Shown: one piece after another, positions 6,693 to 64,000 of the stretch
How positions within the stretch are numbered: position 1 is the stretch's first letter
Layout: each line of letters begins with the position of its first letter
The notes under the pieces: generated by a model
Told to the model about the DNA's origin: nothing
Databases searched by the model: none
What the model saw: the letters and a program-made list of their open reading frames with translations, nothing else
Virus record (IMG/VR): IMGVR_UViG_3300032007_000052
Span: 30,033 to 94,032 of that record
Length of the DNA stretch: 64,000 bases
Strand: one strand, 5' to 3'
Origin: a virus
Lineage: Duplodnaviria > Caudoviricetes
Made by a program: the position numbers and the translations under genes

Positions 6693-7259
6693 TTATACTA
6701 TATCAGAATATCCTAGAAGCATCTGGTCTTCTTCATAGGAACTTACACCTAAATATCTTTGAGTAATAGCAGGACTGCTATGTTGATAAAAATTCATTAC
6801 TTTAATAATGTTGTAGCCACTTGCTTCATAGAGATTCATTCCACAATATTTCCTAAATGAGTGAGTAGATATGTTTTCATATTCCAAAAAATCACATACC
6901 TTTTTTAGATATTTTTGAACTGATCGTTCTGTCATAGGGAATATGAGATCATTTTTCTTTATTTCATTTTCCTTGATGTATAAGTTCAAATGCTTATAGA
7001 ACTCGTGACTGATGCTCTTGTAGCGTTTCTTTTTTGTTTTCTGCTCAATTATACTAATCTTATAAATACCACCCGCAAAAACGAAGCTAGAGGGTTTTAA
7101 AGCTAATACATCCTCAATACGGATTCCTAAATTTGCTTCGGCTATAAGAACTTCTGATATTCTGATGTTTGGTTTGAAATAGTATGAGCCTGTTCTCATT
7201 GCTTCGATAATTGTTTTATATTGGTGTCTGGTTAACGGTACTGTTGCGTATGCTCCCAT
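6693..7259 (-). CDS. tyrosine recombinase (catalytic domain only; resolvase-like)
   Basis: GIRIEDV, EQKTKK, THSFRK, QHSS, QRYLG. Confidence 0.9.
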   Translation of the reverse strand: MGAYATVPLTRHQYKTIIEAMRTGSYYFKPNIRISEVLIAEANLGIRIEDVLALKPSSFVFAGGIYKISIIEQKTKKKRYKSISHEFYKHLNLYIKENEIKKNDLIFPMTERSVQKYLKKVCDFLEYENISTHSFRKYCGMNLYEASGYNIIKVMNFYQHSSPAITQRYLGVSSYEEDQMLLGYSDIV

Positions 7260-28953: not shown

Positions 28954-29547
28954 TGTTTTTGTGGTATAATTAATATACTTGATTTTGCTAAGATCAAGTC
29001 CCATAGAAGAGGTTTCCCACTGTACCTTAAACAGTGGTTTTTGTATGCAAAAAAGCTAGTACCTTATAGATACTAGCTTCTTCTTGAAAAGAGATTCACA
29101 TGAGTAATAAAAATCTAAATATATTATATCACGTTTATCTCAAAGCGAAATAAAAATATGTTGATGTAGTGTAAACAATATGATAATATGGGTATTGGAA
29201 GGAGGCATGATGGGTAAGAAAAAGAATAAAAAAAGCATTAAAAAGATTCTGAAAATAATGAAATAGTTACCAATTTTCTTTTAGCGATAGGAGCATTGAT
29301 AGCGTCAATTTCAGAACTTATAAAAATCCTTAAGTAAATTCTATCATTGTTAGGAACATTCTTCAAGTAGTGTTCCTAACTACTCATCAATTTAACTTAA
29401 TGAAAAAAACTACACCTATTTTTCTTGCTTCTGCATGGATTTTACACTATATGAATAGAAATTTATTTAGTAGTGCAATTTTATTTAGTGCAGGTATGAT
29501 AATGTTAACAGAGTCTATAAAAGATTTCAGAAAGTTAAGGAAGAAAT

Positions 29548-29810
29548 CTCACTAATACCCACGGGCAAGCCCGTGGGGTTGTCTGACAACCCGGAGTGAG
29601 TAGCCTGAGTGAAGCCTATTGGCTGAACTACGTTAAGAGAGAATATATAGTTACCTACGGATGTCGTACCAAGTCTGTAGCTCTAAGGTCTGTGATTAAA
29701 CAGTCCTGTGGTATAGGGACAGTGTTGCTGATACAAAACCTCTCATTAACATTGGCGATGGTACACTAACCGCTCTTCGGAGCGAGTAATTAAACCTTTA
29801 TGGTTTTGGA
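29548..29810 (+). ncRNA. IscB omegaRNA scaffold
   Basis: ctcact/agtgag stem, tagcc..ctacgtt, ttaaacagtcct, aacattggcgatgg blocks; similar to 34611-34875. Confidence 0.85.
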
Positions 29811-29824
29811 AAGGGGAATACGTA

Positions 29825-31099
29825 ATGGTTTACGTACTTGATCAAAACGGACAGCCTTTAATGCCTACGGAAAACCATGCTAAAGTGCGTGTTCTTCTAA
29901 GGCAAGGTAAGGCAAAAGTAATAAAGAAATGTCCGTTTACAATACATCTGTTATATGGTAGTACAAACTACACACAAAAAGTGACTTTGGGTGTAGACAG
30001 TGGAAGCAAGCATATCGGTATTTCAGCAACTACAAAAGACAAAGTTCTTTACGAGGCCGATGTGGAACTTCGGAGTGATATTGTGGATCTGCTTTCTACC
30101 CGTAGGGAATTAAGAAGTTTAAGACGTAATCACAAGACCCGTTACCGCAAACCACGATTCGATAACCGCAAACGTAAAGACGGATGGTTAGCACCTTCAG
30201 TAAGGCAGAAAGTAGATTCTCACTTAACGATGATAGCAAAAGTACATAAGATACTTCCAATATCAAATATCGTAGTAGAAGTAGCCTCTTTCGATATACA
30301 GAAGATCAAAAATCCAACTGTCAGCGGTACAGACTATCAGCAGGGTGAACAGCTAGGCTTTTGGAACGTCAGGGAATATGTTTTATTCCGTGATGGTCAT
30401 GTATGCCAATGCTGCAAAGGCAAGTCCAAGGATAAGATCTTAAATGTTCATCATATAGAAAGCCGTAAGACTGGTGGCGATGCACCCAACAACCTCATAA
30501 CGTTGTGCGAGACCTGCCACAAGGGTTATCACAAAGGAACAGTAAAACTTCCCAAGGCGATACACAGAGGGATGTCATTCAAGGATGCTGCGTTCATGGG
30601 TATCATGCGATGGGCTTTGTATGAGAAACTTAAGACCATATACCCGGACGTAAGGCCTACATACGGATACATCACTAAGAATACACGTATAGAAAACAAT
30701 TTATCAAAAGACCATTATGTAGATGCTCGTTGTATCAGCGGCAATCATAATGCAGTCAGCAATGGCGAGGTTTTCTATTATAAGAAAGTCCGCTGTCATA
30801 ACAGACAGATACATAAAAACACTATTCTTAAAGGTGGATATCGAAAACGTAATCAGGCCCCATACGAAGTAAAAGGGTTCAGATTATATGATAAAGTCCT
30901 TGTTAAAGGACAGATAGCTTTTGTTTTTGGCAGACGAACTGATGGGAGATTTGCTATCCGCAAATTCGACGGAACCAAGATTAATGAGCAAATGTCATAC
31001 AAAAAGATTAGACTTATAGAACCACGAAAAAATTTCATTTGTGAAAGGAGGACGCCGCTCCTCATCGGGGCAAGCCCCGACGTTCCCGCGGCTGTTTAA
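29825..31099 (+). CDS. iscB: IscB RNA-guided endonuclease
   Basis: PLMP, LGVDSGSK, RRxxRR bridge helix, VEVASFD, HNH (HHIESRKTGGDAPNNLITLC), HYVDA. Confidence 0.96.
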   Translation: MVYVLDQNGQPLMPTENHAKVRVLLRQGKAKVIKKCPFTIHLLYGSTNYTQKVTLGVDSGSKHIGISATTKDKVLYEADVELRSDIVDLLSTRRELRSLRRNHKTRYRKPRFDNRKRKDGWLAPSVRQKVDSHLTMIAKVHKILPISNIVVEVASFDIQKIKNPTVSGTDYQQGEQLGFWNVREYVLFRDGHVCQCCKGKSKDKILNVHHIESRKTGGDAPNNLITLCETCHKGYHKGTVKLPKAIHRGMSFKDAAFMGIMRWALYEKLKTIYPDVRPTYGYITKNTRIENNLSKDHYVDARCISGNHNAVSNGEVFYYKKVRCHNRQIHKNTILKGGYRKRNQAPYEVKGFRLYDKVLVKGQIAFVFGRRTDGRFAIRKFDGTKINEQMSYKKIRLIEPRKNFICERRTPLLIGASPDVPAAV

Positions 31100-35092: not shown

Positions 35093-35290
35093 CTCAAAGC
35101 TTAGTCTAAGTCTTTAATGACTACGTTACCTGTAAATATATAGGCACCGTGGAATGTTTAGCCTAGTTCCACGCTCTGCGGTTGGTGATTAAACAGTTCT
35201 TGAGGGTATGGAACAGTGTTGCCAACATTAAACTACAGGATAACTTTGACGAAGGCTACATTACCGCTTTTAGCGAGTTATTAATTTTTA
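35093..35290 (+). ncRNA. 5'-truncated omegaRNA fused to the last CRISPR repeat
   Basis: tagtctaag..ctacgttacc..ttaaacagttct..aactttgacgaagg present; first guide-adaptor stem absent. Confidence 0.8.
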
Positions 35291-35307
35291 GAAAAGGATT
35301 TAACTTT

Positions 35308-36558
35308 ATGGTCTATGTACTGAATAAAGACGGACAACCCATAATGCCTACACAAAACCATGCTAAAGTGCGTGTGCTTCTAAAAAACAACAAGGCGAGG
35401 GTTATAAACAGATGTCCGTTTACAATACAGCTTTTATACGAATGTGATAATCAGACGCAGCCTGTATCTCTTGGTATTGATGCAGGAAGCAAACACATTG
35501 GTATATCCGCAACAACAGAAAGTAAGGTTCTTTACGAAGCGGATGTTGAACTAAGGAATGATATTGTTGATTTACTTTCTACAAGACGCGAGGCCCGCAG
35601 GACAAGACGTAACAGAAAGACACGTTACCGCAAACCAAGATTTAATAACAGGGTTTCAACTAAAAAGCAAGGCTGGCTTGCACCTTCAATAAAACAGAAG
35701 ATCCAGTCTCACCTTACGGTTGTTGACAAAGTAAACAAAATACTTCCAGTATCTAAAACAACAGTTGAAGTTGCCTCTTTTGACATTCAGAAGATAAAGA
35801 ATCCTGGCATCAAAAATACAGATTACCAGCAGGGCGAACAACTTGGCTTTTGGAACATTAGGGAATACGTAATGTTCCGTGATGGCCATGTGTGCCAGTG
35901 CTGCAAAGGCAAATCAAAGGATAAAATACTTAATGTGCATCATATTGAAAGCCGCAAGGTTGGTGGTGATGCGCCGAATAATCTTATAACATTATGTGAG
36001 ACCTGTCATACAGGTTATCACAAAGGAAAAATAAAACTTCCTAAAGAAATAAAACGTGGTATGAAGTTTAAAGATGCTACCTTTATGGGTATTATGCGTT
36101 GGGCTTTCTATAATAAGTTAAAAGAATTATACCCTAATGTTAGTTTGACCTATGGGTATATCACAAAAAATACACGCATAGTAAATGGTCTTTCTAAAGA
36201 ACATTTCATTGATGCAAGATGTATAAGTGGTAATCCTAATGCGTCATCTGATGGCATAGTTTATTATCAAAAGAAAGTAAGATGCCACAACAGACAGATA
36301 CACAAACAAAAAATATTAAAAGGTGGAATACATAAGCTTAATCAGGCTCCTTATAAGGTTAAGGGTTTTAGACTTTTTGACAAGGTTCAGTACCAAGGGA
36401 ATGATTATTTTATTTTTGGAAGACGTTCAAACGGATTTTTTGACATCAGAACATTAGATGGCATAAAAGTTAATAAAGGTAGTTTATCTTATAAAAAGAT
36501 AACACTTTTAGAGATGTCACAAAGTTTTCTAACAGAACAAAGAAAGGTAATAGCATAA
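35308..36558 (+). CDS. iscB: CRISPR-associated IscB
   Basis: PIMP, LGIDAGSK, VEVASFD, intact HNH, HFIDA; true start MVYVLNKDG after RBS aaagga. Confidence 0.96.
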   Translation: MVYVLNKDGQPIMPTQNHAKVRVLLKNNKARVINRCPFTIQLLYECDNQTQPVSLGIDAGSKHIGISATTESKVLYEADVELRNDIVDLLSTRREARRTRRNRKTRYRKPRFNNRVSTKKQGWLAPSIKQKIQSHLTVVDKVNKILPVSKTTVEVASFDIQKIKNPGIKNTDYQQGEQLGFWNIREYVMFRDGHVCQCCKGKSKDKILNVHHIESRKVGGDAPNNLITLCETCHTGYHKGKIKLPKEIKRGMKFKDATFMGIMRWAFYNKLKELYPNVSLTYGYITKNTRIVNGLSKEHFIDARCISGNPNASSDGIVYYQKKVRCHNRQIHKQKILKGGIHKLNQAPYKVKGFRLFDKVQYQGNDYFIFGRRSNGFFDIRTLDGIKVNKGSLSYKKITLLEMSQSFLTEQRKVIA

Positions 36559-36625
36559 CCGATAAAGCGATCCTCTCACGATTGAAATCGCGAGTCTCCG
36601 CGCGTGGTAAGCCAAAGGGTTTTTT

Positions 36626-54798: not shown

Positions 54799-54981
54799 AT
54801 GGCACGACCTAAAAGCGATAACGTACAAATCAACATTTCCATACCTTCTGAGTGGAAAAAAGAACTTGAAAACCTTGCACGTATTTATTCCGTTGAAGAA
54901 GGTAAAACCATAACTTTTCTTGACCTGATGCGTAGGGGCATTCAGGAAAAATATCAGTTAGGAGTAAAGGGCAATGAATGA
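54799..54981 (+). CDS. ribbon-helix-helix regulator
   Basis: QINISIP.EW..EL...A, T..DLMRRGI. Confidence 0.7.
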   Translation: MARPKSDNVQINISIPSEWKKELENLARIYSVEEGKTITFLDLMRRGIQEKYQLGVKGNE

Positions 54982-55387
54982 AGAGCAATATCATAGTGCT
55001 TCGCATTGCAAATATCTGATACAGTACCACATTATATGGTGTCCTAAATTTAGATTTTCAGTATTAAAAGGTAATGTTGAAGATACACTCAAGCTGATAC
55101 TTCAAAAAATCTGCAATGATTATAATTATCGTATTAAGGCACTTGAAGTAATGCCTGACCATATACATATTTTCATAGATGCCCCACAGACTGTTGCACC
55201 ATGTGATGTTGTCAGAACTCTTAAAAGTATCAGTGCAATAGAACTATTCAGGGCGTTTCCGCAGCTTAAACAATTCTATGCAAGATGTGGCGTTTTGTGG
55301 TCAAAAGGATATTTTGTATCAACAGTAGGGCATATAAGCGAAGCTACGGTAATTAGGTACATTGAGGAGCAGAAAAATCATGATTGA
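54974..55387 (+). CDS. tnpA: IS200-family Y1 transposase
   Basis: YHIIWCPKFR, MPDHIHIF (HUH), LWSKGYF, YIEEQ. Confidence 0.96.
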   Translation: MNEEQYHSASHCKYLIQYHIIWCPKFRFSVLKGNVEDTLKLILQKICNDYNYRIKALEVMPDHIHIFIDAPQTVAPCDVVRTLKSISAIELFRAFPQLKQFYARCGVLWSKGYFVSTVGHISEATVIRYIEEQKNHD

Positions 55388-56990
55388 TGGAGAATACAAG
55401 AAGATTCTGAAACAATATCATAAACTTTCTGGCAGGCATATTTTAGTCGCTGAGACTGATATGCCTTATTCTGATGTGCTTAAGATTGTGATCCTTTCTG
55501 ATAAAATCCGCAAGGCAGGCAATGAACTTGTTGGTCTTATGAGAAAGAATTATGATCAGCTTTTTCGAACAAAGAGGTATCGCAAACTATTATTCCTTTA
55601 TGGCAACACAGGAGATAAAGTTAAACGCAAAATTCTTGCTAATCAGCTTAATGAAATGCAGAAATCCTATAATGTCACATGGGATTACTGTAGAAAATCT
55701 ATGATTCCAATAGGCAAAAAGTATGGTGTCGATGCTGTCTTTGCTCTAACCAAAGCCGAAGATGTTTGGCATGGTGTGGAAAAATGTCTGTATGGTAATG
55801 GCAGGACCATACATTTTTCAAAATATGGAGAACTGCCTTGTATCCGAGCAAAACAAATAAACCGTGGTATTCCTATATCCGTAAAAGATAATAGATTGCA
55901 GTTCAAACTTGGAAAGACAACTTTCGGGATACAGGCAGATGACAGGTTTCAAACAGACGAAGTAAATGCTGTTTTAGCTTATCTTGCTGAACCTGAGATT
56001 ATGGATAAAAAAGCTGTTAATACACTCATTGAAGATGCCTATTGTGTAGATACATACAGACCTTGCTATGCCACACTCGTTCCCAAAATGATAAGGGGTA
56101 AATACCGAGTATATTTACACTTAACTATTGAAGGTAAGGCGAAACCGAAATACGATAAATATGGCAATCTCCGTCATAAATACGGCAAAGGTATGATAGG
56201 TGCGGATATTGGCACTCAGACCATTGCCTACACTTCTAATATAGAGGTAGGGTTGAAGAACCTTTCGGAGCGTGGCAATAGTATACAGACTTCCGAACGG
56301 AAAGAACGTCTGCTCTATCGAGCTATGGACAGGTCAAGGAAAGCAACCAACCCACAGAATTACAATGATGATGGTACTGTAAAGAAAGGTCATAAGACTT
56401 GGAAATATTCAAATCATTATAAGAAACTGAGAGCCAGACATTCTGAATTATGTCGCATCAATGCTGTAAACAGAAATCTTGCAATAAAAGAGGATGTAAA
56501 TCACTTGCGGAGTCTTGGAGATGTATTTGTTACTGAGCCTAAAAATGCAAGTAAGCTCATGAAGCGAGCCATAAAAACCACTAAGAATTACAAGGGTAGA
56601 TTTAACAGGAAAAAGCGGTTCGGTAAATCCATAAAAAACAGATGCCCCGGAGGTTTTCAGTCAAATGTAGAGAAGAAATTCAAAGCCACAGGTGGCACAT
56701 ATATAGAAGTCCCGAATAACTACAGGGCTTCGCAGTATGACCATACAGCAGATGACTATATAAAAAAGAAGCTGTCCGACAGATTGTTTAAACTACATGA
56801 TGGTACTGAAGTACAGAGAGATTGGTATTCATCGTTCTTACTATACTGCTATGATCATATGACACATGATATAGATAAAAATAAATGCAATACAAAATTT
56901 GAGGAACAATACAACAGAGAAAAAGCCTTAATCACTTGGATTAAGGCTAATAAACTTAAAATATTAAACAGTGGAATTAAAATAGCTTAA
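55380..56990 (+). CDS. tnpB: large TnpB-family nuclease
   Basis: RuvC GADIG / VTEP / QRDWYSSF all retain acidic residues. Confidence 0.85.
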   Translation: MIDGEYKKILKQYHKLSGRHILVAETDMPYSDVLKIVILSDKIRKAGNELVGLMRKNYDQLFRTKRYRKLLFLYGNTGDKVKRKILANQLNEMQKSYNVTWDYCRKSMIPIGKKYGVDAVFALTKAEDVWHGVEKCLYGNGRTIHFSKYGELPCIRAKQINRGIPISVKDNRLQFKLGKTTFGIQADDRFQTDEVNAVLAYLAEPEIMDKKAVNTLIEDAYCVDTYRPCYATLVPKMIRGKYRVYLHLTIEGKAKPKYDKYGNLRHKYGKGMIGADIGTQTIAYTSNIEVGLKNLSERGNSIQTSERKERLLYRAMDRSRKATNPQNYNDDGTVKKGHKTWKYSNHYKKLRARHSELCRINAVNRNLAIKEDVNHLRSLGDVFVTEPKNASKLMKRAIKTTKNYKGRFNRKKRFGKSIKNRCPGGFQSNVEKKFKATGGTYIEVPNNYRASQYDHTADDYIKKKLSDRLFKLHDGTEVQRDWYSSFLLYCYDHMTHDIDKNKCNTKFEEQYNREKALITWIKANKLKILNSGIKIA

Positions 56991-60157: not shown

Positions 60158-60550
60158 TCATAGATGTAATTGGGTTTTTAAGGCATCTTGGAGTACTTGA
60201 GAAAAGTTGATTCCTGATGCAATCGCTGCGTCGTTTAACCAGGATGGAATAGATAATGTTTTTTTGACAGATGCATTGTTCAAAACCTTGCGATATTTCA
60301 TTGTATCAGCTTGAATTAGAGTTAAAAATTCATCATTTTTAATTTTGATGTTATTGATTGAAGATGGTGATTTTATAGGCAAATGTGAATCCTCTAATTC
60401 TACTAACATCAAATTAAGTGCGTCTTGTGCCATTTCAATTGAATCTTGTAAAGTGTCGCCACAAGTAAAACATCCTTCAATATCAGGGAAGGAAACAGAA
60501 TATCCACCGTCTGATTCTGGCGAAAATAATGCGGGATAAATGTATTTCAT
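60158..60550 (-). CDS. hicB: HicB antitoxin
   Basis: YPA.F....GGYSVSFPD..GC.T.GD, VKKTLSIP.WL, INFSQVLQ. Confidence 0.93.
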   Translation of the reverse strand: MKYIYPALFSPESDGGYSVSFPDIEGCFTCGDTLQDSIEMAQDALNLMLVELEDSHLPIKSPSSINNIKIKNDEFLTLIQADTMKYRKVLNNASVKKTLSIPSWLNDAAIASGINFSQVLQDALKTQLHL

Positions 60551-60579
60551 AAATAAAATCCTTTCTAAAGGAACAGGAC

Positions 60580-60771
60580 TCAGATGAGTCCTGCTGCTTT
60601 ATAAATGTTGTTAGCAGTTTTGGTTTTGACTTCTTTAGAAGGGTGACGAGGAATTTGAAATTTTTTTCCAGTGTTGGGATTAATCCAAATTTCGTGGTTA
60701 GTGCCTTCTCTAAAGAAATGGCAATTAGTCTTTTTTAGAATAAGCCTTTTAATTTCTGATGCAGTTGCCAT
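60580..60771 (-). CDS. hicA: HicA toxin
   Basis: REGTNHEIW.NP.T, IPRH. Confidence 0.92.
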   Translation of the reverse strand: MATASEIKRLILKKTNCHFFREGTNHEIWINPNTGKKFQIPRHPSKEVKTKTANNIYKAAGLI

Positions 60772-61584: not shown

Positions 61585-63018
61585 ATGGCAGTATTAACAA
61601 GAACACTAGAAATGATTCCGATAGGGGATAAGGCAGAAAGAGATAGAATATATACTTGGATAAGGTCATTTATGGACGCTCAGTCTAAAATGATGAATCA
61701 ATATATGTCAGCTTTGTATATTGCTGCAATACAAGAGATATCAAAAGAGGATAGACAGGAATTGAATAAGCTTTACAATCGTATTCCTACGTCAAGTAAG
61801 GGAAGTGCGTTTGATAAAGAAATAGAGCTTCCTAAAGGCTTGGGCGCGGCCTATGGACAGACTGTAAGAGCAGACTTTGATACGTCGTGCGAAAATGGTT
61901 TATTGCATGGGCGAGTAGCGCTTCCTACATACAAGAAAGATTATCCTATCATTATTCCACCTTTGTATGTGCAGCTTAGGAAAGTAAATCAGGAAACCAA
62001 AGGGAAAAACTGCGGTTTTTATGAAGAATATGACAGCTATAATGATTTGTATGATGCTTTGACGCAAGGAGAACCGGAGATTTTTTGGAGTTTTGTTGAT
62101 AAAATGATATTCAAAATCCGGTTCGGAAATCCGTATAAATCAGCATTCCTGAGAAGTGAGATTTTACACTTTTTAGAGGGCGAATATAAAGCAATGGGAT
62201 CTAGTTTGTCAATAAATAACAAGGGCAAGATTATCTTGTCGTTGACTATGGAAATCCCTGAAAAGAAAGTGAAGCTTGATGAAAACACGGTATGCGGTGT
62301 AAGTCTTGGATTTATGCATCCGATTGTTTGCTCGGTAAATAATAACTTTTATAAAAAAGAATTTATTGGAGATTATGATGTTTTTGTTCATACAAGGGTA
62401 AGACTCCAGGAACAAAGGAGAGAACTCCAGAAGAAGTTAAAATATGCTTCCTCAAGTCATGGAAGAGTTAAAAAACTTCGTAAATTAGACATACTTAGGA
62501 AGAGGGAAGCTAATTTTGCAAAAACTATGAATCATAAAATGTCTAGTGATATAGTCAAGTTCGCGGTTAAAAACGAGGCTAAATATATCAATATGCAAGA
62601 CTTAACTTCGTTTGGTAAGGATAATCGAGATAATATTAAAAGCGGTTATGAATTTGCACTTCGTAACTGGTCTTATTTTCAATTACAACAAATGGTAACT
62701 TATAAGGCTGCTACATACGGTATCGTGGTTAGGAAGATTTCTAACGATAATTTGAGCGATACATGCTCGATATGTGGCGCGGAAGGCATCATAGAAGATG
62801 GAGCTTTTATTTGTTCTGATCCTAATTGTCTATCGCATGATAAGTACGAGAAGGCACGTAAGAACGGGAAAGGTAATTACTACTTCAATTCTGATTTTAA
62901 CATTTCTAGGAACGCGTCGATTTCGGAAAATTTTACAACCAAAAAAAGAAAGTCTAAAGCGGAGAAAAAGGAAGAAAGAAAAGCTAAAAAAGAGAAAGAA
63001 AACCTAGACAAAACCTAA
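61585..63018 (+). CDS. Cas12f-like protein with inactivated RuvC (S240, Q338; D437 retained)
   Basis: G.VALPTYKKDYP, GVSLG (for GVDLG), NHKMS, INMQDL (for INMEDL), RNWSYFQLQQM..YKA, CSIC..C, NSDFNISRN; adjacent tracr and array. Confidence 0.85.
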   Translation: MAVLTRTLEMIPIGDKAERDRIYTWIRSFMDAQSKMMNQYMSALYIAAIQEISKEDRQELNKLYNRIPTSSKGSAFDKEIELPKGLGAAYGQTVRADFDTSCENGLLHGRVALPTYKKDYPIIIPPLYVQLRKVNQETKGKNCGFYEEYDSYNDLYDALTQGEPEIFWSFVDKMIFKIRFGNPYKSAFLRSEILHFLEGEYKAMGSSLSINNKGKIILSLTMEIPEKKVKLDENTVCGVSLGFMHPIVCSVNNNFYKKEFIGDYDVFVHTRVRLQEQRRELQKKLKYASSSHGRVKKLRKLDILRKREANFAKTMNHKMSSDIVKFAVKNEAKYINMQDLTSFGKDNRDNIKSGYEFALRNWSYFQLQQMVTYKAATYGIVVRKISNDNLSDTCSICGAEGIIEDGAFICSDPNCLSHDKYEKARKNGKGNYYFNSDFNISRNASISENFTTKKRKSKAEKKEERKAKKEKENLDKT

Positions 63019-63033
63019 CAAAAATGATAAAAT
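63005..63033 (+). promoter_or_regulatory. sigma-A-type promoter for tracrRNA/array
   Basis: TAGACA-17bp-TAAAAT with extended TG. Confidence 0.65.
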
Positions 63034-63036
63034 ATA

Positions 63037-63176
63037 AACCGTCTCAAGCCATTAAAGCTTGTATAGCCAATGATGCAAACGAATAGAAGTTGCACGACTA
63101 AACAAGCGACGGTAGGTTTGACTGCCAAAAGGTGAGGCTATAAAGCACTCACTAAAGCCTTGGAAATAAATTTGAG
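63037..63176 (+). ncRNA. putative tracrRNA/leader
   Basis: segments complementary to the repeat: aaccgtctcaagc (63037), loop gtttga (63116), gccttg..taaattt (63157-63173). Confidence 0.7.
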
Positions 63177-63719
63177 GTTTGAGACGGTTGAAATTTAACA
63201 AGGTTCTCAAACATTTTATGCGCATTTACAAAAAGGCATCCAGTTTGAGACGGTTGAAATTTAACAAGGTTCTCAAACTTTAGTAGCAATAATTGCAGAG
63301 CAGTTAATGTTTGAGACGGTTGAAATTTAACAAGGTTCTCAAACATGATATAGATGAAGTGTCAAATATATTTGTTTGAGACGGTTATAATTTAACAAGG
63401 GTCTTAAACATGAGATAAGTGATCCTGACAGAACTGATAAGTTTGAGACGGTAGTAAAATGCAAGGTTTTCAAACTCGGTTAGGTGCTCAACGAAGAAGG
63501 TCTAGTTTGAGACGTGTGTAAAAAGACAAGGGCCTCAAACTGGCTTACAGGATTTGATGTTTCATTCCTTGTTTGGGATAGATTACAAGGTTCTCAAACA
63601 GGTGCGGTTATTCTTTTTGCAAAAATGCAAGGCCTCAAACAAGGATACTTATTTAATTATAGATAGCCAGTTGGTTGAGTTAGGCATCAAACTGTAAGAA
63701 GGTGTTTTAGGCATCAAAC
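63177..63719 (+). CRISPR. CRISPR array: 36-bp repeats, 29-31-bp spacers, degenerating rightwards
   Basis: GTTTGAGACGGTTGAAATTTAACAAGGTTCTCAAAC at 63177, 63243, 63309; variants at 63374, 63441, 63505, 63571; remnants ending tcaaac at 63640, 63692, 63719. Confidence 0.95.
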
Positions 63720-63839
63720 GGCCAGAACGTTTTACATGTATATGATTATTAAAAAGCATTAAAATGATATAGTTTGATGTGTTGACACATTAAATATTGA
63801 CAACATATACTAAAAATAGAGAAAGAATAACTTAGAATG

Positions 63840-63867
63840 GAAGTAACTGTGTGTTACTTCTTTTTTT
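63840..63867 (+). terminator. intrinsic terminator after the array
   Basis: gaagtaac-tgtgt-gttacttc followed by T7. Confidence 0.8.
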
Positions 63868-63873
63868 GTCACA

Positions 63874-64000
63874 AAAACCTAGACAAAACCTAACAAAAAT
63901 GATAAAATATAAACCGTCTCAAGCCATTAAAGCTTGTATAGCCAATGATGCAAACGAATAGAAGTTGCACGACTAAACAAGCGACGGTAGGTTTGACTGC
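63874..64000 (+). repeat. exact copy of promoter + tracrRNA (62999-63125)
   Basis: 127 bp identical up to the window end. Confidence 0.92.

Follow-up and report, generated by a model that had tools for sequence, protein, structure and literature searches.

Several described systems share features with the locus analyzed here, a cassette on a 64,000-nucleotide (nt) stretch of rumen phage DNA that forms the last 64 kb of the complete 94,032-bp virus record IMGVR_UViG_3300032007_000052 and is called the window below; the record closes on a 112-nt terminal repeat. The cassette encodes a Cas12f-like protein that has very probably lost the ability to cut, a putative trans-activating RNA (tracrRNA, or tracr) and CRISPR arrays, and one spacer of these arrays is almost certainly DNA of hsdR, a type I restriction gene. 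Coordinates are window positions unless marked "genome", and L-numbers denote fetched loci.

The TldR proteins, nuclease-dead TnpB-like repressors that prophages direct at host flagellin (10.1101/2023.11.30.569447; PMC13418256), resemble the present protein in being phage-borne members of the TnpB/Cas12 lineage without nuclease activity, and in repressing a host gene through a guide RNA during residence, an activity that is here a proposal. TldR uses one fixed guide within an omega-RNA, without a CRISPR array or tracrRNA, and its target is the promoter of a non-defence gene, whereas the cassette described here has two multi-spacer arrays with turnover and a known target inside a coding region. 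RuvC-inactivated Cas12f relatives that lie beside CRISPR arrays and are proposed repressors have also been described (PMC13472631). These are bacterial, carry C-terminal RuvC truncations and have guides that sometimes match efflux-cassette promoters; the protein in the window, in contrast, is phage-encoded and full-length, its RuvC changes being point substitutions, and is accompanied by an hsdR guide. Type V-M Cas12m and the type IV-A3 systems of plasmids are mobile-element CRISPR effectors that silence by binding without cutting, and type IV-A3 acquires spacers in trans via a host adaptation module whose leader and repeat resemble its own (PMC11656645). Both belong to other effector families, however, and their spacers target rival plasmids; in that 2024 review the word "restriction" occurs 0 times and no restriction-gene target is mentioned. 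Finally, Vibrio phage ICP1 encodes a type I-F system against the PLE island of its host (PMC9040626), which makes it a phage-encoded CRISPR system against a host anti-phage element, but that system is complete, cuts, brings adaptation genes of its own and destroys an inducible satellite during lytic growth.

In the literature searched, we found no report of a phage-encoded dead Cas12f, nor of a CRISPR guide against a restriction gene. Known anti-restriction proteins such as Ocr and ArdA are DNA mimics that block the enzyme at once; type I restriction is lost and modification stays. The outcome proposed here is the same, but the proposed block lies at transcription and would act only over generations.

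The hsdR guide and its cellular target

The 90% protein cluster to which the Cas12f-like protein belongs has 93 members; six sister elements were fetched, and with that of the window seven were compared. The cassette consists of the following features.

61585..63018, + strand: Cas12f-like gene, 477 amino acids (Pfam, PDB alignments)
63005..63033, + strand: promoter-like site of unit 1, preceding the tracr-like RNA (consensus scan, 10/12 matches, TG-extended -10)
63034..63176, + strand: tracr-like RNA of unit 1 (repeat pairing; core kept in L125)
63170..63176, + strand: leader end ATTTGAG, abutting repeat 1 (direct sequence reading)
63177..63719, + strand: CRISPR array 1, about eight spacers (36-nt repeats, 29-31-nt spacers)
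63345..63373, + strand: spacer 3 (identical copy in three sister elements)
63476-63504: spacer 5 (diverged twin at genome 327-355, L003)
63541..63570, + strand: spacer 6, hsdR motif-V DNA in the coding sense (presumed guiding part nt 1-20, 63541-63560)
63641..63670, + strand: spacer 8, behind a half repeat
63839..63861, + strand: terminator-like hairpin and T run, end of unit 1 (sequence scan)
63874..64000, + strand: start of unit 2 (promoter and tracr), exact copy of 62999-63125
63880-63908, + strand: second copy of the promoter-like site, before unit 2 (recurrence of the 63005..63033 site)

Unit 1 runs along the + strand from the promoter-like site through the tracr and the array to the terminator hairpin. 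Unit 2 crosses the 112-nt terminal repeat into genome 1-520, which gives a full second tracr and array; this array 2 has five spacers (genome 158-515), twins of spacers 5 and 6 among them. The array and the spacer translations reported in a first-pass annotation of this DNA were reproduced, with spacer 6 reading WLTGFDVSFL and spacer 8 KDTYLIIDSQ in frame 1, and spacer 3 DIDEVSNIF in frame 3.

That annotation had linked spacer 6 to HsdR, and the link held up in a word scan with nt 1-20 of the spacer, allowing A or C at position 9, over 185,579 prokaryotes represented by one genome per species. Exact matches are found in at least 120 species from many bacterial and archaeal phyla, where about 2-3 would be expected by chance. 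All but one of the 120 matches listed fall in a single frame, ..(D/A)M-WLTGFDV(P/K).., and the three match-carrying open reading frames (ORFs) that were tested score 608-614 bits on the TIGR00348 hsdR model (cut-off 285). At L071, the sole locus whose neighbours were scanned, hsdM-like and hsdS-like genes stand beside hsdR. On this evidence, we hold the identification of spacer 6 as hsdR DNA to be very nearly certain.

The match follows the coding logic of the motif. Spacer 6 begins exactly at the first of the universally conserved WLTGFDV codons. Among the 120 matches listed, target position 9 is A in 76 and C in 44, which correspond to two common Thr codons, and the phage copies carry the same A/C alternatives; the targets show free variation at positions 21-30 and, with few exceptions, carry the Asp-Met codons GATATG as their 5' flank. 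The array-2 twin of spacer 6 differs at positions 9, 22 and 26, reads a perfect WLTGFDVPSL and, among the matches listed, agrees with three genomes at 29/30 nt. In Pseudobutyrivibrio, the genus of L071 and a candidate host genus, 34 genomes yielded ten hsdR genes above the family cut-off. Against the 20-nt guide these have 0, 0, 2, 3, 3, 3, 4, 4, 6 and 7 mismatches, so that two of the ten match at 20/20 nt and six at three mismatches or fewer. Matches at 20/20 nt occur in the Butyrivibrio or Pseudobutyrivibrio genomes from which L055, L071 and L160 were taken. Nucleotides 1-19 of the guide have zero matches in IMG/VR viral contigs, and no spacer self-target was found in the phage genome, where the longest matches are 14 nt. 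These two results point to cellular type I restriction DNA as the target of the guide, which is motif DNA in the coding sense, the orientation that the first-pass annotation had read.

Six of the seven sister elements retain the hsdR spacer, this genome in two copies, and it always follows the same repeat, which is divergent, yet identical in all carriers, and whose 3' part can still pair with the tracr. L130 is without the spacer, and L136 has a variant changed at nt 20. Over seven copies of the hsdR spacer, variable sites amount to 2/20 in nt 1-20 vs 5/10 in nt 21-30 (Fisher p = 0.026). Cas12f guides comprise about 20 nt next to the upstream repeat, and conservation confined to nt 1-20 fits what would be predicted for a working Cas12f-type guide.

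The predicted nuclease-dead Cas12f and its guide RNAs

The Cas12f-like protein matches PF07282 (Cas12f1-like_TNB) at 34.6 bits (2.2e-08; cut-off 26.3 bits) and the Cas12f chains of the PDB at 1.9e-48 to 1e-19. Alignment to solved Cas12f reveals that D is replaced by S in the RuvC-I motif GVSLG (S240) and E by Q in the RuvC-II motif INMQDL (Q338), while D437 of RuvC-III is kept and the zinc-finger TNB domain is intact. S and Q occupy both RuvC positions in 7/7 sister copies. The D/E/D triad is kept, or the sequence is too short to judge, in 34 of 38 aligned homologues. It is present in the closest of them, which has an intact RuvC, shares 63% identity and lies on L125, a contig labelled as a Pseudobutyrivibrio ruminis metagenome-assembled genome. 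L125 (5600-5860) is a related contig of phage-like character; HicAB lies upstream of the Cas12f relative there, which has an array of its own with four repeats, unrelated spacers and a leader without ATTTGAG.

Among the sister cas12f genes, pairwise ratios of nonsynonymous to synonymous substitution (dN/dS) are 0.00-0.05 (about 0.03) at dS 0.08-0.25, and values this low indicate that the dead Cas12f is strongly maintained by purifying selection. The description of the protein as a dCas12f in the first-pass annotation is thus borne out, as two of the three RuvC acidic residues are lost and selection on the protein is strong. We predict that it is a derived, inactivated member of type V-F, in which the effector fold and the array are found and the intact catalytic triad is not. 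Taken on the sequence evidence, the protein is very likely a maintained, non-cutting, RNA-guided DNA binder.

The RNA components of the cassette lie on the + strand. The 5' segment of the tracr (~63036-63048) pairs over 13 bp with repeat nt 1-13, and its 3' segment pairs with the 3' half of the repeat; the duplex is predicted at -21.3 kcal/mol, which is only ~2 standard deviations better than shuffled repeats and thus statistically weak. The tracr core is conserved in the 63%-identical relative on L125. Array 1 opens with three identical 36-nt repeats, followed by increasingly degenerate and truncated ones towards 63719. Spacers on the leader side vary between sister elements and those on the trailer side are common to them, a pattern that indicates spacer gain at the tracr side. 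The twins of spacer 5, one per array and each adjoining the hsdR spacer, have unlike bases at positions 3, 6 and 26; in frame 1 the changes at 3 and 6 are synonymous. A near-consensus promoter (11/12) is also present on the + strand ~25 nt before the unit 1 terminator (63782-63861), and it would give a transcript of ~50 nt between the guide units.

Two bovine gut studies provide four RNA libraries whose contigs map to 62999-63710 and 63849-64000 and hardly cover the cas12f ORF; in the four libraries contig depth is highest on the tracr. One contig covers 63434-63710 without a difference, and a second contains spacers 5 and 6 in their array-2 form. These contigs come without strand, ends or level, DNA carry-over into the libraries is possible, and sparse cover of the ORF is not evidence. 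Their position over the tracr and the two arrays, with the hsdR spacer of each, is a hint of expression.

Proposed silencing of hsdR and its alternatives

We propose that the dead Cas12f silences hsdR to the phage's benefit, a reading for which we judge the case to be evenly balanced. It builds on what the sequences show, namely which gene the guide matches, that catalytic residues are lost, that the protein and guide nt 1-20 are under selection, and that spacers turn over; to these it would add repression, a benefit from it, a protospacer-adjacent motif (PAM) and spacer uptake in trans. The phage, whose gene set is that of a plasmid-prophage, would carry a self-contained type V-F unit of dead Cas12f, tracrRNA and two + strand arrays, with Cas12f retained as an RNA-guided DNA binder. 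An old guide, present in two slightly different copies, would pair with the hsdR template strand at the WLTGFDV-coding DNA, and because these codons are the most widely conserved stretch of the HsdR subfamily, one 20-nt guide fits the hsdR of many hosts. Bound Cas12f would block RNA polymerase ~1.85 kb into the 3.1-kb hsdR ORF, and the product would be a truncated HsdR without the last helicase motif and the C-terminal region. Since hsdM and hsdS would still be expressed, the cell would be restriction-negative but modifying. New spacers would enter at the leader end, probably via a host type II-A Cas1-Cas2-Csn2-Cas9 module that the leader-repeat junction imitates.

How far the other spacers share in such a role can be judged from their matches. 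The first-pass annotation had named type I and type IV restriction genes together as targets; the hsdR identity sustains the type I part, and the type IV part, which rested on DUF262/GmrSD motifs, falls away with matches at chance level. We located the DGQQR motif in 8 of 11 GmrSD_N genes from the 34 Pseudobutyrivibrio genomes, and at that site the first 20 nt of spacer 8, which had been read as DUF262, have 9-15 mismatches. Only (I/V/L)DGQQR is conserved in GmrSD_N, the preceding residues vary, and the motif falls at spacer positions of at least 19. The "IIDSQ" part is moreover absent in at least two sister arrays (L138, L140), where spacer 8 ends after 18 nt. A stretch after the last repeat yields GQQRFT, to which it had been likened, only once a base is inserted, and L130, a sister element, departs from it at three positions; spacer 3, also assigned to DUF262, has matches of 12 nt or less in the fetched DUF262 or hsdR loci. 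Arrays of homologous loci, to which the annotation had looked for further defence targets, were no more informative: 79 spacers from 25 array-bearing loci of 80 distant Cas12f relatives gave no match in ~0.99 Mb of type I restriction-modification (R-M) and GmrSD loci.

The best match of spacer 8 in 401 Lachnospiraceae genomes is of a different kind. It covers 25/30 nt in a type I-B cas8b gene (PADLOC Cas8b 8e-168), on the sense strand and in frame at codon 32, and 0.2-0.9 such matches would be expected by chance. No match was found in eleven other cas8b genes, and no other spacer matches in the genome concerned. A cas8b target for spacer 8 is therefore no more than a weak lead. The best match of spacer 5, in a KduI/IolB gene, was rejected as chance. 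Tested against the 120 hsdR neighbourhoods by blastn-short and by a peptide-level scan with shuffled controls, none of the other spacers rises above the null, whose top counts reach 28. Array 1 has only chance-level matches in 50,697 phage records. Word scans of IMG/VR gave zero matches for the hsdR spacer and spacer 3, and for spacers 4 and 5 only GC-rich ones that diverge after 19 nt. Array queries against the 34 Pseudobutyrivibrio and 401 Lachnospiraceae genomes returned only hsdR matches, CRISPR repeats and weak matches.

Several of these observations, and others, weigh against the silencing of hsdR as proposed. A target is identified for 1 of ~35 distinct spacers, so that a defence-aimed array rests on a single case and one chance-level lead. 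The arrays of the distant Cas12f relatives are without an hsdR spacer, their 79 spacers having only A-rich low-complexity matches. The shared spacers that neighbour the hsdR spacer are conserved over their entire length, so that the drift of nt 21-30 carries more information than the conservation of nt 1-20. Known Cas12f PAMs are T-rich or C-rich and the target's 5' flank, GATATG, is not, though this is a single target for comparison; the shared 5' PAM sought by the first-pass annotation is not derivable from one known target. Finally, silencing after DNA entry leaves the HsdR protein already in the cell. Because this protein persists, any benefit must come during long residence, and the resident state is inferred from gene content, specifically from the following genes.

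6693-7259: tyrosine recombinase, 188 amino acids
50162..51833, + strand: ParA-like ATPase and ParB-like protein, a partition module (Pfam AAA_31 7.6e-62, ParB_N 8.6e-24)
60158..60771, - strand: HicB and HicA, which form a toxin-antitoxin pair a short way upstream of the cassette

This gene set suggests an extrachromosomal, plasmid-like prophage, and ParA/ParB and HicAB make long residence plausible. Over generations of such residence outside the chromosome, HsdR would be lost by dilution. The gain could then be that the resident element is protected when the type I specificity of the host changes or a new system arrives, or that the carrier cell is generally restriction-negative and modification-positive.

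The guide could instead serve in conflict between mobile elements, silencing the hsdR of incoming or co-resident elements or of a newly acquired or specificity-switched R-M system by which the unmodified DNA of the resident phage would otherwise be cut, with the other spacers directed at rival elements absent from databases. Plasmids, integrative elements and other prophages are frequent carriers of type I R-M operons, the dead type V-M and the type IV plasmid systems act in this manner (PMC11656645), and the phage has plasmid-like maintenance genes. Spacer turnover on the leader side is fast, as in an arms race, and most spacers match nothing in the 50,697 phage records, in IMG/VR (for four of them) and in ~400 Lachnospiraceae genomes, which is typical of rare-element targets. 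However, no spacer was traced to a plasmid or phage, and at the inspected loci hsdR stands in ordinary chromosomal-looking hsdM-hsdS-hsdR contexts. As the motif is the same in a chromosomal or a mobile gene, sequence cannot separate this explanation from the silencing of host hsdR to the phage's benefit. On balance, we consider it unlikely.

It is also conceivable that the hsdR spacer is a passenger, picked up by chance from host or foreign DNA and functionless in a decaying array end, while the dead Cas12f uses other guides or has another role. The spacer does sit among degenerate, truncated repeats, old neighbouring spacers are equally conserved, L130 has lost it, and the L136 variant is changed within the guide, at nt 20. 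A spacer without function would not be expected, however, to occur in two diverged copies in one genome that are each 20-nt exact to a common hsdR allele, to start where the universally conserved codons start or to limit its drift to nt 21-30. The upstream repeat, identical in all carriers, has likewise kept its tracr-pairing 3' part, and the region is present in RNA-library contigs. We therefore regard a passenger as quite improbable.

Spacer uptake, phage context and wider meaning

Searching the complete 94-kb genome gave no match to Cas1 or Cas2. In each array the leader ends in ATTTGAG, which abuts a repeat opening with GTTTGAGA (63170-63187; genome 151-168). This leader-repeat junction, the 36-nt repeats and the 30-nt spacers match features of type II-A arrays, while the neighbouring gene is cas12f, with no cas1 or cas2. 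ATTTGAG/GTTT is the group-1 type II-A junction, and the last 10 leader bases together with one repeat are reported to be enough for adaptation (PMC5382924). Through repeat similarity, two Lachnospiraceae genomes (G043, G250) were found to hold cas9-cas1-cas2-csn2 loci with leaders that end ..AATTTGAG before GTTTGAGA and with the same 36/30 geometry; Cas9, Cas1 and Csn2 are Pfam-confirmed in one of these loci, and the other was recognized by the order and sizes of its ORFs. By manual count, one of these Lachnospiraceae type II-A repeats is identical at 27/36 positions to the phage repeat in reverse complement. The 63 type II-A spacers of G250 have no match in the phage.

The ATTTGAG leader end also precedes the arrays of many Cas12f relatives in metagenomes. 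Nine loci (L178, L187, L189, L195, L199, L200, L213, L221 and L226) have it before GTTT-type 36-nt repeats with 29-30-nt spacers, and L156 and L157 are listed with the same ATTTGAG-GTTT junction. Taken together, these observations suggest that type V-F arrays on mobile elements may be loaded by host type II-A adaptation modules. Uptake in trans by such a module would be a reasonable explanation for spacer turnover on a phage that has no cas1 or cas2, and there is a precedent for it in type IV-A3 with type I-E (PMC11656645).

The same likeness, in repeat, leader and geometry, to the type II-A loci of G043 and G250 could be taken to mean that the arrays are decoys that load or soak up host Cas9 with phage guides, through antisense transcripts resembling pre-CRISPR RNA in which the conserved 20 nt of the hsdR spacer would become the Cas9 guide part, but this is highly improbable given that promoter and terminator lie on the + strand only, that each array follows a conserved Cas12f-type tracr complementary to the repeat, that the adjacent Cas12f is under strong purifying selection, and that Cas9, if it used the sense strand, would depend on nt 11-30, which are subject to drift. 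The leader motif, being shared by the arrays of many relatives, looks like a common adaptation feature and not a decoy; most homologues in the wider search are D/E/D.

The remainder of the phage genome holds further relatives of RNA-guided nucleases. An IS200/IS605-type pair at 54974-56990 consists of a Y1 transposase (137 amino acids, PF01797 2.4e-37) and then a 542-amino-acid TnpB-like ORF, and two IscB-type (HNH) genes lie at 29547-30929 and ~35100-36560; the TnpB-like ORF thus adds a third kind of such relative to the dead Cas12f and the two IscB genes. IscB copies in Lachnospiraceae genomes are up to 82% identical at the nucleotide level, in keeping with a host range in the Lachnospiraceae but without naming a host. 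In the search for a host, a 20-kb phage segment found IscB copies at up to 82% identity and no prophage. In the window, L130 and L140, HicAB is upstream of the cassette and a portal gene follows array 2. Sister elements L134-L139 carry the dead-Cas12f cassette in another neighbourhood, with ParA close upstream and, in L134, also a tyrosine recombinase downstream. These differing neighbourhoods indicate that the cassette or its surroundings are mosaic.

Seen as a whole, the cassette could be a reloadable natural form of CRISPR interference (CRISPRi) that a phage of rumen Firmicutes uses against host immunity, with a universal hsdR guide, refilling by host type II-A modules and other guides, possibly one against type I-B cas8b, that would carry it to further defence systems; we offer this broader picture tentatively, as possible though doubtful. 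That a type V-F array has a leader in type II-A style suggests that spacers are acquired across CRISPR types, which has so far been shown for type IV-A3 with type I-E. The unit, a compact natural dead Cas12f of 477 amino acids accompanied by a tracrRNA and arrays competent for processing, could be used as a scaffold for CRISPRi. The placement of the guide holds a design principle, in that aiming at codons that cannot change gives one 20-nt RNA reach over bacterial and archaeal hsdR. If the silencing of hsdR is true, the phage would represent a new class of anti-defence, in which restriction genes are turned off by RNA-guided transcriptional silencing, where the known ones act by protein block or by modification of the phage DNA.

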